64,000 bases of DNA from Oligoflexales bacterium (GCA_965215515.1 OZ244057.1:1600001-1664000); one strand, 5' to 3'; shown: positions 30,742-56,245, counted from the stretch's first letter. Notes: a model not told the origin generated them from the letters alone. Numbers and translations: made by a program.

Positions 30742-32550
30742 TTAGGGTGCTGCCGCACATCGGGGCGTAGCGCAGTCGGTAGCGCGCGTGCTTTGGGAGC
30801 ATGAGGTCGCTGGTTCGAGTCCAGTCGCCCCGACCAGTCCCGCCGCTATGCAATTTGTGACCTCATCATCCCCGCTAGGTGTGGATAAGTTTTTGAAGAT
30901 GAACTGTAGACGCACTTTTGCCTCGTCCATAGGTCGAATGATGATCTTTTCAAAGAGCTTCCTGTAGGCGGATTTCAGCGCAATTGCATCCTTCCTTTTG
31001 ATGCAGCTGATCGCGGTGTTAACACACTCCAACCCGCTGTCTTTGGGAAGAACTTGCGCCTCTCTGATCTGTTTTTGCAGTAACTGAAGCTGTACCTTAC
31101 TGCTTCCCAGCTCTCGCTCTTCGTTTTGCAGGGCTGAAAACTGCTTCTCGTATTCGTCCCTGAACGACCGTGCCAGTTCCAAGTTGTTGCTTTCCAGTAG
31201 AAAGCTTAGGCGGTCGTCGAGCTTCCTTCTCTCTAACGCCAACTCAGCTAGTCTTTTGTCAACCTCAACAATTTTCCCATTCACCACCCCAACAGAAGCA
31301 TCTTTACGAGCCGCGTAGTCAGCAACGCTTTGCCGAAAGGCCGCGGAATTCTCAACAACATGGTGCAGTATTTTCTCCGCCGCAGACTCAAATACTCCCG
31401 TTCTCACCCTAACCTTGTTGGCTCTGTTGTAGTAGTAGGTGGACTTGGTAGCATTTCTTCCCCAAGCACCGCTACCTACGAAGCCAGAGCCATCATCGAA
31501 GAACAGTATGCCAGAGAGAGGGTAGCAGTGCTTTGTTCCCTTCGTCCTTGTCCCATCTAGTTCTTTGATCTTGTCTTGCGCCCTCTGCCACAGCTGTTTG
31601 TCTACAACACAGCCATGAGGTAGCTTGACTTCAACATAACGCTCGTAAGGCATAAGCTTGCTCTGACGTTTGTCAGCATTGTGCTTGTTGCGATACCACT
31701 TGCCGATGTAACGGGGATTTGCCAGCAAACTTCTGATGCTATCGCTGTTAAAATCATTACCCCGTTTGCTCTTAATCCCCCGCTCCTTGCATAGCTCAAG
31801 CAGGGTCTTATATCTGTCCACGTTGAGAAAAGAAGTCATAATCCACTCAACCTGCTTCAGTTCTTCCTTGTTAGGCTGATAGATGCCCGTGTATTCGCCA
31901 TGCTCATTTTTGACAGCATCAAACCCCAACAGTGGATAGTGACCGTTGAACTTACCTGAAGTCAACAAAGCAGAGTGATTGCTTTCCCTGATGCGCTTGG
32001 ATGTCGTCCGTGATTCAAATTCAGCAAACGCCGCTAACTGATCAAGCTGGAGGATAGAAGCAGGATCGTTCGGGTTGAATGGCAGTCCACGAATACATAT
32101 CTCGCAGTCGTAGGTTTGGCACAGCTTGAAGAACCGCTTCCAAATTTCAAGGTCTCTGACCAGACGTGCAATCTCCTTGATAATGACAAAGCCGTGGTGC
32201 TTCAGGCTGATATTCTGCTGCATCCTGATAAACTCTGGCCTGTTGTCATGCGTACCCGTGATGCCGGGCTCGATGTAGAACTCGGTGATCCTGTAATTGA
32301 GCTTCTCCTGCTCCGAGCGATATTGCGCTTCAGAGATAGCGATGTGGATTTGCTGTTCCAGTGATCCCCGCTCTACTGCTACCTGTGTGTCATCAGATAA
32401 ACGCAGATAAACTGCCCCTTCAATCGTCTGCCAACTTTTGTCAAACGGTTGCCAGTTCCTGATGTGCTCTTCGGCAAGGCCGCGGCAATCAGCCACGACC
32501 TTCAATGCAAGCTTTTTCATCTCCCTATGATCTAGCTTTTTTCTATACAT
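30742..32550 (-). CDS. Large serine recombinase (integrase), 3' end antisense to the tRNA
   Basis: Catalytic YLRLS, NRPEF, ARLVRD, recombinase domain, PLSG motif, coiled coil. Confidence 0.93.
   Translation of the reverse strand: MYRKKLDHREMKKLALKVVADCRGLAEEHIRNWQPFDKSWQTIEGAVYLRLSDDTQVAVERGSLEQQIHIAISEAQYRSEQEKLNYRITEFYIEPGITGTHDNRPEFIRMQQNISLKHHGFVIIKEIARLVRDLEIWKRFFKLCQTYDCEICIRGLPFNPNDPASILQLDQLAAFAEFESRTTSKRIRESNHSALLTSGKFNGHYPLLGFDAVKNEHGEYTGIYQPNKEELKQVEWIMTSFLNVDRYKTLLELCKERGIKSKRGNDFNSDSIRSLLANPRYIGKWYRNKHNADKRQSKLMPYERYVEVKLPHGCVVDKQLWQRAQDKIKELDGTRTKGTKHCYPLSGILFFDDGSGFVGSGAWGRNATKSTYYYNRANKVRVRTGVFESAAEKILHHVVENSAAFRQSVADYAARKDASVGVVNGKIVEVDKRLAELALERRKLDDRLSFLLESNNLELARSFRDEYEKQFSALQNEERELGSSKVQLQLLQKQIREAQVLPKDSGLECVNTAISCIKRKDAIALKSAYRKLFEKIIIRPMDEAKVRLQFIFKNLSTPSGDDEVTNCIAAGLVGATGLEPATSCSQSTRATDCATPRCAAAP
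30761..30836 (+). tRNA. tRNA-Pro(TGG), integration target
   Basis: CGGGGCG acceptor stem, CGTGC-TTTGGGA-GCATG anticodon arm, GGTTCGAGTCC T-arm, encoded CCA. Confidence 0.97.
30831..30933 (+). repeat. attL core plus element arm; 103-bp direct repeat with 56143-56245
   Basis: 102/103 identical (G30898 vs A56210). Confidence 0.97.
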
Positions 32551-32839
32551 CTCTACCTCCTAGATTTAGGTACGAATTAACAATTATCATGGCCACAGCA
32601 TCCACATCCACCCCAGACAGGTCACCAACGATCTCAGTCTCAATTACCAAGTTCTCGCCATCAATCACCATGTGCTTTTTAGCCTTCGCCTTCCTTCTGC
32701 GGCAGGACTGTTCCCGCTTACGACAGTTCTTGCATCTGCTCTCCCGCCCATTCTGGCCATTGGGCTTCTTCCCGAAACAATCCCAAGCTTTGAATTTGTG
32801 GCATTTCTTACATATCCTTCCCACATCTGATGCTGTCAT
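32543..32839 (-). CDS. Small zinc-finger protein coupled to the integrase
   Basis: CKKC...CKNC with a basic tract; overlaps the integrase start. Confidence 0.65.
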   Translation of the reverse strand: MTASDVGRICKKCHKFKAWDCFGKKPNGQNGRESRCKNCRKREQSCRRRKAKAKKHMVIDGENLVIETEIVGDLSGVDVDAVAMIIVNSYLNLGGRDV

Positions 32840-33150
32840 ACCACAGCTTGCTTAGGTTTCCGTCCCGTTATCTTTCGTCCCTTGTTGAGGTACTCCTTGA
32901 TGGATTTGTCGATATCCTCAATCGGTGCGGTATTGATGAGGCTTCGCAGGTAGCTGCGCTTATCGAAGAACATTTCGGCAATACTGTCATACTCCCGCTC
33001 CGCATACTTCTGAAAAAAGATTGCAATGATCTGGTTCACCACCTTCGAGCTGTCCGTTCGGCAAGACCCTTCCCGCAGCCTTGTCACCAAATCGGTGACA
33101 AGGCTTGCTTGCTTCTGTTCCAATACTATCCTACGCACTGACTTACTCAT
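32836..33150 (-). CDS. Hypothetical ICE protein
   Basis: Start/stop overlaps with both neighbours. Confidence 0.6.
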   Translation of the reverse strand: MSKSVRRIVLEQKQASLVTDLVTRLREGSCRTDSSKVVNQIIAIFFQKYAEREYDSIAEMFFDKRSYLRSLINTAPIEDIDKSIKEYLNKGRKITGRKPKQAVV

Positions 33151-33587
33151 CTTGAGCTTGGTAACCGAGATGCATTGCCTCTGATCGTCCATACACAATG
33201 CTGCTGGACGAGCCTGTTGCCTCTGACCTCCCAGTCGAAGCACTCCTTATCTACGTCAGGAGCTGACAACCGAAAGTCCTGCACACCCTGCTTGCTGATC
33301 GGTGCAGAGACCGAGAATTTATCGAGATTGAGTAGCGTCTGCCGTCTTGTCTTGGTATCCCTCTTCTGCAACGCCTTATGAATCAGATAGCTGCTAGCTG
33401 CGCCGATTGCAGCACCGAATAGTGCTCCCTTCAGCGCACCTTTGCCTCCCGTTGCAGCCATGTTCGCTACTGCTCCTGTGCCCACGCCTACACCTACGCC
33501 TGTAAGCATAGACCTGTGCATCGTGGCACAGCCAGCTGCTAAAGTAGCACTCATTACCAGTAACATCACCATCACCTTTTGCTTCAT
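33147..33587 (-). CDS. Glycine-zipper lipoprotein (VirB7/TraV-like role possible)
   Basis: LAAGC lipobox, GxxxG repeats, AGGAGG RBS. Confidence 0.65.
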   Translation of the reverse strand: MKQKVMVMLLVMSATLAAGCATMHRSMLTGVGVGVGTGAVANMAATGGKGALKGALFGAAIGAASSYLIHKALQKRDTKTRRQTLLNLDKFSVSAPISKQGVQDFRLSAPDVDKECFDWEVRGNRLVQQHCVWTIRGNASRLPSSR

Positions 33588-55543: not shown

Positions 55544-55655
55544 GCTCCTCGGTAGAGGATAAACCCTTATCGATGCGTTCGATAGCGGCTTTCTGCACGA
55601 AGGGCAAAAGTTTCTTGGCCGCGCAGCCTGCCCCAGATAATAGCAGAGTTATCAT
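55515..55655 (-). CDS. Small putative lipoprotein (46 aa)
   Basis: MITLLLSGAGCAAKK...; ATGA overlap with the stop of the 55652 ORF. Confidence 0.35.
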   Translation of the reverse strand: MITLLLSGAGCAAKKLLPFVQKAAIERIDKGLSSTEELTQKLTGKG

Positions 55656-56242
55656 GATGAGACTAGTGCCGCCCTCCTGCCCCTATCCATGTAAACCCCC
55701 TCCCGCCTGAGAATTGCGGTAACCGTGCTGTGATCCCAGCCCTTGCCTTGCCGCTTGGTGGGGATTTTCATAGTATCCAGCAGCCTAGCGATAGCCGCAG
55801 TTCCGATGCCTTCGGCATACATCTTTTTGATGGCAGCGATGGTGCGCAGCTCACGCTGGTGATCTACGGCTTTGCCGCTAGTACGCCGCTTGCCGTAAAT
55901 TCTCCAGTGGTCTTTGTGGTATTTGTTCTGCTCTCGCAACGGAATCTCATACTTCAAGAGCAGGCTTCTGATCCGTGTCTTTGAGCACGAAAATTCATTA
56001 GCAATGTCCCGCATTGAGAGGCGATCTTCGAGGTATTTCTGTTTGAGCACGTGTTTGGAAGCAAGCAGGGATGTGATATAAGCATCTAATTCTATGTAGA
56101 ACTTTATATTGCGCACGGATATTGCACAAAGACTGTCCTGAACGACCAGTCCCGCCGCTATGCAATTTGTGACCTCATCATCCCCGCTAGGTGTGGATAA
56201 GTTTTTGAAAATGAACTGTAGACGCACTTTTGCCTCGTCCAT
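55652..56242 (-). CDS. Alternative integrase C-terminus with two HTH-like motifs
   Basis: First 33 aa identical to integrase residues 541-573; then LSMRDIANEFSCSKTRIRSLL and AAIARLLDTMKIPTKRQGKGWDHSTVTAILRRE. Confidence 0.75.
   Translation of the reverse strand: MDEAKVRLQFIFKNLSTPSGDDEVTNCIAAGLVVQDSLCAISVRNIKFYIELDAYITSLLASKHVLKQKYLEDRLSMRDIANEFSCSKTRIRSLLLKYEIPLREQNKYHKDHWRIYGKRRTSGKAVDHQRELRTIAAIKKMYAEGIGTAAIARLLDTMKIPTKRQGKGWDHSTVTAILRREGVYMDRGRRAALVSS
56121..56166. other. attP-like site
   Basis: ATTGCA (56121) and TGCAAT (56161) arms symmetric about CG 56143-56144, where identity to the tRNA 3' end begins. Confidence 0.75.
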
Positions 56243-56245
56243 AGG
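56143..56245 (+). repeat. Direct repeat of 30831-30933
   Basis: 102/103 identity. Confidence 0.97.

Follow-up and report, generated by a model that had tools for sequence, protein, structure and literature searches.

We analysed a 64,000-nucleotide stretch of DNA from an Oligoflexales bacterium (GCA_965215515.1, OZ244057.1:1600001-1664000; hereafter the window), which carries an element at the extreme 3' end of a tRNA-Pro(TGG) gene. To judge from its gene content and boundaries, the DNA at 30837-56142 is a predicted integrative conjugative element (ICE) inserted by its own large serine recombinase (LSR). The attachment (att) core of the element lies inside the integrase gene, and this arrangement of the sequence makes it highly likely that the gene has two forms, one encoding 736 amino acids (aa) in the free element and the other 602 aa in the integrated element. 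The long form would end in a predicted DNA-binding module, and the short form in a tail translated from the antisense strand of the target tRNA gene.

A putative attachment core within the integrase gene

The integrated form of the integrase (Int-short) comprises residues 1-573 followed by a 29-aa tail, GATGLEPATSCSQSTRATDCATPRCAAAP, read antisense through tRNA-Pro. An initial interpretation of the DNA (the sequence-only reading) had the integrase frame crossing the hexamer CGACCA at 30831 and ending in this tail, and both features are seen in the 602-aa open reading frame (ORF). The tRNA-Pro(TGG) gene is still intact with the element inserted, and copies of it at 93-96% identity are present in three related genomes. 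Int-short contains the Pfam domains Resolvase at residues 46-190 (E 4.7e-15, above cut-off) and Recombinase (PF07508) at residues 229-330 (E 7.2e-15), and residues R50, S52 and Q56 are invariant across 29 members of the integrase family. Pfam Zn_ribbon_recom was not matched in the integrase; the family profile spans the zinc-ribbon/coiled-coil region in its alignment with residues 60-520 of the 545-residue SPbeta integrase (PDB 9dxh), which places the end of the canonical LSR body near residue 550. The frame reaches CGACCA ~20 codons past the last conserved LSR element. At the other end of the gene, AGGAGG stands 5 nucleotides (nt) ahead of the ATG. Judged by these features, the short form is a predicted complete LSR.

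Short-form tails share one phase relative to the antisense of CCA (xTG Gxx), in which the conserved T-arm is read as G[ILV]EP whichever tRNA is targeted; the tail is therefore quasi-conserved rather than arbitrary. Tails read from the T-arms of different targets in the genome of the window (G000) and at loci L066-L087 include GLEPATS, GIEPTS, GVEPET and GFEPS. Separately, we observed an integrase subgroup (loci L067 and L072) with the tail GGVV[FTY]CTAVG, whose end is not in an antisense tRNA. One such integrase in G000 (C1:1161103-1161733, plus strand) runs in the sense direction into the 5' end of tRNA-Arg(tcg), and in genome G002 there is no tRNA nearby. This subgroup may use another type of target.

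A second CGACCA occurs at 56143-56148, at the far end of the element. From there the minus strand continues as GGA CTG GTC GTT CAG... in the phase of the integrase, and the frame stays open for one split codon (GTT) and 162 further codons, up to a stop at 55652-55654. The fused product would thus have 573 + 163 = 736 aa and the integrated product 573 + 29 = 602 aa. The reading frame and Pfam both agree with the initial description of this segment as a stop-free 163-codon module, with a helix-turn-helix (HTH) and a recombinase-like motif, joined in phase to the core. CGACCA is the sole sequence common to the tRNA side and the module side, so that crossover is expected within the hexamer or just to its right. 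Dyad symmetry at the core was not above background (the best window scored 14/26, a value reached by ~6% of random places). A CA central dinucleotide, proposed by eye, was withdrawn with dyad symmetry at background level.

The recurrence of CGACCA had been recognised correctly at the outset, but its extent had been given as 6 nt; the hexamer is in fact the left edge of a 103-nt direct repeat with 99% identity (30831-30933 and 56143-56245). Beyond the right-hand copy lies an older, diverged fragment of an integrase gene (Table 1), and ~800 nt are missing between this fragment and the integrase-tail remnant. Together, the 103-nt repeat and the fragment, with its 78% identity to the integrase, indicate that the DNA to the right of 56143 is the decayed 3' end of a second integrase gene rather than naive chromosome. 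The junction at 56143, in the order module, core and integrase tail, is by its layout an attP-like P-core-P' junction, a putative chromosomal fossil of attP. The coupling of a small ORF to the module stop, also noted at the outset, holds as well: the 46-aa ORF has an 82% identical copy with the same overlap after the module at 588.1 kb in G000, and 56-61% identical copies at three G002 loci.

Remnants of integrase 3' ends lie directly outside attR both in the window (56143-56439) and at the transfer-messenger RNA (tmRNA) element of G000 (C1:152376-153950). The sister element at tmRNA has a flanking repeat of 579 nt with 99% identity, followed by relaxase and TrbI remnants, and an element in a distant genome (G007) has ~26 nt of integrase tail ahead of its module. 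These observations suggest that the DNA to the right of attR derives from an earlier related element, and that new copies may insert on the tRNA-proximal side while older ones decay. Such remnants were missing at 9 of 10 distant attR sites read by eye, and we rejected them as a universal part of the mechanism. Farther to the right, at 56976-62158 (plus strand), the window encodes a ParA/VirC1-like ATPase, an IstB-like ATPase (weak match) and a second AbiEi/AbiEii pair, which are probably the rest of the older element.

The DNA after the tRNA-Pro gene of the related genome G001 starts with ATTCCGCCGTGGCAC..., members of the integrase family are absent nearby, and the locus looks like an empty site. 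The same tRNA gene in G002 has a 39-nt copy of its 3' end ~150 nt downstream (C1:1238637-1238675, minus strand), as is typical of integration of another, displaced-fragment type.

Long and short forms among relatives

Intact fused proteins occur among the homologues. P0074 (730 aa) and P0081 (739 aa), both from the 120 integrase homologues listed, are 41-44% identical to the window integrase; P0161 (737 aa), found among module homologues, is 30% identical to it. Full-length proteins of ~740 aa, which the sequence-only reading had proposed to look for, are therefore present. P0161 aligns with P0074 and P0081 over the full length, including the module, at 34% identity. The module is carried by 7 of the 120 listed integrase homologues, five of which are N-terminally truncated remnants. 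Other searches returned little of this kind: a plasmid search with P0081 found distant LSRs only, at 23-28% identity, and the long form on no free replicon, a word-based search for longer module homologues found five proteins, all close relatives, and the ESM Atlas yielded only generic LSR clusters.

Both states exist in one lineage, in which the long P0081 shares 85% identity with the 598-aa P0090 and 77.5% with the integrase of locus L087. All three sequences part right after KMAQ, exactly at the core, where P0081 continues into the linker and module and L087 into KEGLEPPTQ..., the antisense of tRNA-Asn.

The usable junctions among these elements all share one phase across the core. All four junctions between an integrase tail and a module in this genome form a single open frame (702, 426, 246 and 197 aa). 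Among 29 distinct module copies from three genomes, eight have a recognisable tail upstream, and six of these tails join the module without a gap and in frame; the remaining two belong to decayed near-duplicates and are in a different frame. The junction in the distant genome G007 is likewise in frame, and two attL/attR pairs in G002, matched by position, have the same core phase. Pairing of attL with attR in five distant genomes drew on the one genome with both ends on a single contig. In 10 junctions read by eye, 11 codons separate a conserved Cys of the tail from a conserved A-E of the linker. Fused homologues, divergence at the core, constant phase and the lack of a conserved start for the module (see below) all support the initial claim of a 736-aa circular and a 602-aa integrated product.

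The C-terminal module

We found no ATG ahead of the module HTH in the window, and two upstream GTGs lack a purine-rich stretch, consistent with the earlier impression that the module has no convincing Shine-Dalgarno (SD) sequence or start before the HTH. Nor did the relatives reveal a conserved start codon or ribosome-binding site (RBS): the sole Met column before the HTH in 17 close copies holds M in seven, I in nine and V in one, and the core codon is L, M, V or W by lineage. Promoter and terminator scans gave counts at or below the shuffled expectation and carry no information here. The ratio of non-synonymous to synonymous changes (pN/pS) is 0.32 in the module body, 0.55 in the distal linker and 0.73 in the first 12 linker codons. 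With pN lower than pS in each of the 105 pairs, the module body is clearly under purifying selection.

In the chimeric 196-aa ORF that includes the module, residues 57-99 give a weak HTH signal and residues 133-181 match the first half of Pfam Recombinase (E 1.4e-8, above the family cut-off). An AlphaFold2 model of the module, built from 78 sequences, has a predicted local distance difference test (pLDDT) score of 90.1. It comprises an unstructured segment (residues 1-28), a three-helix HTH (29-63), a hairpin (84-93) and a second, recombinase-domain-like three-helix unit (HTH2, 95-147). A Foldseek search with this model gave no match at E <= 0.001. The top rows were LSR-DNA complexes, namely 9y66 and 9dxh (prob 0.99-1.00) and Bxb1 9iu8 (root-mean-square deviation 2.3 over 82 columns), together with the bipartite HTH DNA binders Pax-6 paired domain and Tc3 transposase. 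When the module was compared with the integrase profile by hhalign, only long-form rows were matched. According to the model, the module is a two-part predicted DNA-binding domain on a flexible tether of ~50 residues.

Alternative explanations

Several observations weigh against the two-form gene. With a fixed att geometry the phase is inherited automatically, which makes the phase argument weaker than it appears, and most of the junctions counted are dead tandem remnants and paralogues rather than independent tests. Not one of 510 in-frame linker codons is a stop, compared with 31 and 26 stops among 495 codons in the two alternative frames, but this count was made on 15 pre-filtered copies after 6 of 22 with stops and one mis-registered copy had been dropped. 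Codon-like variation is not seen in the first 12 linker codons, where position 2 varies most and there is no third-position excess; they are probably constrained as DNA and not as protein, which fits the P arm of attP, and the rest of the linker and the module body look protein-coding. Neither a circle nor a transcript or peptide across the junction was seen; four of 11 listed public runs contain the stretch at 0.98-0.99, all from one study and none of them RNA, and the runs with this DNA are represented by Logan contigs (31-mer), which are unable to link across the 103-nt repeat. Finally, the called start of 20 out of 89 full-length module representatives coincides with the core (M-V-D or M-D), where the ATG consists of one base plus the antisense of CCA, and the Met before the HTH in seven of the 17 close copies offers another start, so that separate translation is possible in part of the family.

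These starts would be expected if the module were translated on its own as a small protein, such as a regulator or a directionality factor, from the core or from the Met before the HTH, with the fusion a by-product of a stop-free, constrained att site. The representative P0130 does start at that Met, and gene calls give most database members a length of 130-200 aa. Such calls are weak evidence for a start, however, because gene callers take the first start in any open frame. We consider a separate protein decidedly unlikely, given that in the window the core codon is CTG, the Met column holds ATA and no SD sequence is present, although its integrase and conjugation genes are intact, and that four distant copies read the core as Trp with no start ahead of the HTH. 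Moreover, the integrase frame never ends before the module in attP-like junctions, and ORFs of 730-739 aa have stayed intact among proteins with 34% identity. Read from outside the element, as it is at attR, the module would need a promoter in the chromosome; a scan of 850 nt, below chance overall, revealed no promoter-like site on the minus strand. A different possibility is that both isoforms are made and that the difference is neutral, the module being dispensable, the antisense-tRNA tail harmless and no switch present. This would accord with the short form apparently already having every canonical LSR part and with a phase that att geometry fixes anyway, and a trivial explanation was also weighed by McMurdie et al. 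(PMC3146451) for DsiB, an integrase discussed below. We regard neutrality as unlikely in view of the purifying selection on the module body, its confident predicted fold (pLDDT 90) and its retention at the C-terminus of LSRs that share just 34% identity; a domain conserved despite being expressed from the free form only should matter in the free state.

Two further explanations concern the right-hand junction itself. The in-frame join at 56143 could be a mere fossil in an element that is fixed, no longer excises and has no present function here. The decayed integrase remnant on the right flank and the abundance of broken copies in the genome, where 2 of ~12 integrases are intact, are in line with such decay, but the window element retains an intact integrase with a strong SD sequence, an intact orf98 (the gene upstream of the integrase), a full conjugation block and an intact module, and 99% repeat identity points to a recent event. 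We therefore judge a fossil very unlikely, and it would bear on one copy and not on the design of the family. Alternatively, the 103-nt direct repeat might be the substrate of homologous recombination or of another enzyme, leaving the serine recombinase and CGACCA incidental. Long repeats do occur, both here and at the tmRNA element, yet their length ranges from ~26 to 579 nt, and among distant copies the upstream integrase tail is missing at 9 of 10 (by eye) and has stops in five. The left edge of the repeat is always the 3' end of a tRNA or tmRNA gene, the right-hand copy runs into other integrase and ICE remnants, as fits tandem insertion followed by decay, and G001 lacks the full 103 nt downstream of tRNA-Pro. 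This last explanation is hardly credible. An ICE with its att site within the LSR gene, two gene products and a functional reading like that of the Mx8 integrase is, taken as a whole, the explanation that we consider likely.

Proposed mechanism

In the excised circle, the integrase gene would span attP and encode the 736-aa protein, consisting of a complete LSR, a flexible linker of ~50 residues and the bipartite HTH module. Integration would cut the gene at the core, leaving a 602-aa complete LSR that ends in 29 residues from the antisense tRNA. The module would be stranded at the far end of the element (attR), reading into the element from outside, without a start codon or RBS of its own. 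By analogy with the Mx8 pair IntP/IntX, the long form may be the integration-proficient enzyme or one that is differently regulated. Loss of the module would then change activity, site preference or regulation, with the result that the inserted state is stabilised. A difference between the isoforms that governs direction or regulation is a tentative proposal, plausible by this analogy but in our view somewhat less likely than not.

Excision might be carried out by the short form together with an accessory factor. A candidate for such an accessory factor, or for a directionality factor, is the protein encoded by orf98. The stop of orf98 and the start of the integrase gene overlap by 8 nt, and orf98 is conserved immediately ahead of the integrase gene at three further copies in this genome and at many related loci. 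Neither of the two ORFs upstream of the integrase (32543-32839, which is orf98, and 32836-33243) matched a Pfam family.

We also entertain a stronger version, which we think rather unlikely, in which the direction of recombination in this LSR family is set by the detachable bipartite HTH module. Insertion would be the work of the module-bearing free-form enzyme alone, and the self-truncated chromosomal enzyme would be inert or excision-only, working with orf98. The module would bind extra DNA beside attP or the tRNA gene, or would reposition the coiled coil. Insertion beside an already occupied tRNA gene would perhaps be included, and this would explain tandem accretion. If this version were true, the enzyme would edit its own gene to lock direction, without a classical recombination directionality factor (RDF) acting on a constant integrase.

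The element and its genome

The features of the window that bear on the element are collected in Table 1. Its gene content was assigned by Pfam on the 29 ORFs between the element ends. The conjugation block encodes a Replic_Relax relaxase-like protein (assigned from this single Pfam family), an FtsK/SpoIIIE-type coupling ATPase, TrbI/VirB10-like and CagX/VirB9-like (weak) proteins, a TraC/VirB4-like ATPase and a TrbC/VirB2 pilin. The cargo includes an AbiEi/AbiEii pair, an N6/N4 methylase-Mrr fusion, a radical SAM protein and a trypsin-like peptidase, and the predicted regulators are an HTH_3 protein and two sigma-70 region-4 proteins.

Table 1. Positions of the element, its predicted ends and associated genes in the window
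Feature	Positions	Strand	Basis
Integrated-form integrase (Int-short), 602 aa, predicted LSR	30742..32550	-	ORF, Pfam
tRNA-Pro(TGG), predicted integration target (B arm)	30761..30836	+	ARAGORN; sole tRNA in the window
Putative core CGACCA, final 6 nt of tRNA-Pro including CCA	30831..30836		Sequence comparison
Predicted ICE body, ~25.3 kb	30837..56142		Bounded by direct repeat; Pfam gene content
orf98, small CxxC...CxxC protein (two CxxC pairs)	32543..32839	-	ORF; no Pfam family
Conjugation block	33760..42810	-	Pfam
Cargo and regulation	44672..54066		Pfam
46-aa ORF, overlaps module stop as ATGA	55515..55655	-	ORF
Orphan C-terminal module, 163 codons + stop	55652..56143	-	ORF, Pfam, AlphaFold2
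Chimeric 196-aa ORF, present in the chromosome as is	55652..56242	-	33 integrase-tail residues (internal Met start) + module
Second core + last 97 nt of integrase gene (putative P' arm remnant)	56143..56245		Direct repeat
Older diverged integrase fragment	56245..56334	-	90 nt, 78% identical to 31738-31827

The conjugation block recurs three times elsewhere in the 2.18-Mb genome, at tRNA-Val(tac), tmRNA and tRNA-Ala(ggc), which makes four related conjugative elements at different tRNA or tmRNA genes. For 9 of the 36 tRNA and tmRNA genes of this genome, an integrase or integrase remnant reads into the 3' end or lies no more than 300 nt away from it. Elsewhere, the integrase 3' end overlaps an antisense tRNA or tmRNA gene at 14 of 22 loci in other genomes, which by title are Bdellovibrionota/Oligoflexia metagenome-assembled genomes save for three (two 'bacterium' and one Streptomyces griseus). 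We also observed, in G000 (C1:27207-29045, minus strand), a tmRNA-type integrase with an internal deletion that is fused in frame to a module (P0051, 679 aa, in a 702-aa open frame). This locus is far from the tmRNA gene, within an array at tRNA-Val, and looks like an unrecombined attP brought into the chromosome by another route. At the start of the window there is a repeat of ~700 nt (350-1049 and 4204-4922, 90-94% identity in several blocks) with a spacing of 3.87 kb.

Significance and comparison with known systems

Large serine integrases are prized for genome engineering as simple, one-directional enzymes, and the control of their direction is an active question. Recombination here would strip a whole DNA-binding domain from the enzyme, which provides two defined proteins for direct comparison. 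The diversification of serine integrases over many tRNA and tmRNA targets in one small genome may be useful for orthogonal integrase/site pairs. The two-form gene would also explain hundreds of orphan annotated ORFs of 130-200 aa ("HTH/recombinase"), as well as integrases with odd G[ILV]EP tails. If the isoforms prove equivalent, the finding shrinks to an annotation curiosity.

The window LSR resembles SPbeta SprA (9dxh, 9y66), Bxb1 and A118/LI in having a resolvase catalytic domain, a recombinase domain and a probable C-terminal coiled-coil region. For phage large serine integrases attP is usually described as external to the gene, with a separate RDF determining direction. Unlike the phage LSRs, the window family targets the 3' ends of tRNA and tmRNA genes. 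The Islander 2014 paper (PMC4383910) describes serine integrases as not known to target tRNA genes, and the 2020 tycheposon preprint, which deals with integrative elements in the genomic islands of Prochlorococcus, reports a large serine recombinase in 27 of 937 integrative elements. The older view that only tyrosine integrases use tRNA genes is corrected by the elements described here.

SSV1 and mycobacteriophage BPs also have att within a gene, so that integration alters the product. Integration of SSV1 splits and inactivates its tyrosine integrase gene, and in the integration-dependent immunity of BPs a repressor is truncated. Neither involves, as the window element would, an LSR that loses a domain. 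Searches of the literature outside subscription journals returned no account of an LSR that acquires or sheds a DNA-binding domain like this, nor any of these Bdellovibrionota ICEs.

The sequence-only reading knew of no description of a self-altering integrase gene for a tRNA-targeting LSR, which overstated its novelty, because DsiB at ssrA (PMC3146451) and Mx8 IntP/IntX, a tyrosine integrase studied by experiment, precede it. dsiB, the LSR gene of the Dehalococcoides ssrA islands, always overlaps attL, with its 3' end in the tmRNA gene or the repeat of that gene, and was suggested to be possibly fully functional only on the circle or beside an adjacent island with the missing 3' fragment (McMurdie et al. 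2011, PMC3146451). Tandem islands are described at this ssrA gene (PMC3146451), and in their account of dsiB the authors identify no C-terminal module and leave the stop codon open (PMC3146451). DsiB and the window integrase are alike in that an LSR gene lies at attL with its 3' end antisense over the target RNA gene, and one ICE here is likewise at tmRNA. DsiB has a co-transcribed small serine recombinase partner, DsiA, whereas we found none beside the window integrase, where the upstream ORFs belong to no Pfam family and orf98 is a CxxC protein.

Mx8 integrates into a tRNA gene. Its attP lies within int, and integration alters the 3' end of the gene and the properties of the enzyme, an arrangement described as a switch (PMC6070905). 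The change from IntP to IntX was reported by Tojo et al. 1996 and Magrini et al. 1999, as cited in PMC6070905 and PMC4383910, and the Mx8 and SSV integrases are both said to extend across attP (PMC4383910). The window integrase has in common with IntP/IntX an att core within the integrase ORF and a C-terminus that is swapped on integration. The Mx8 integrase is a tyrosine recombinase with arm-type sites and the window enzyme an LSR, which makes Mx8 an analogue and not a member of the same family. The principle of an att site within an integrase gene is thus already known from Mx8 and DsiB. What is new is the scale, in that a whole folded domain is lost: compared with Mx8, the window element exchanges a complete two-HTH domain (~135 residues) and its linker, not just a tail.

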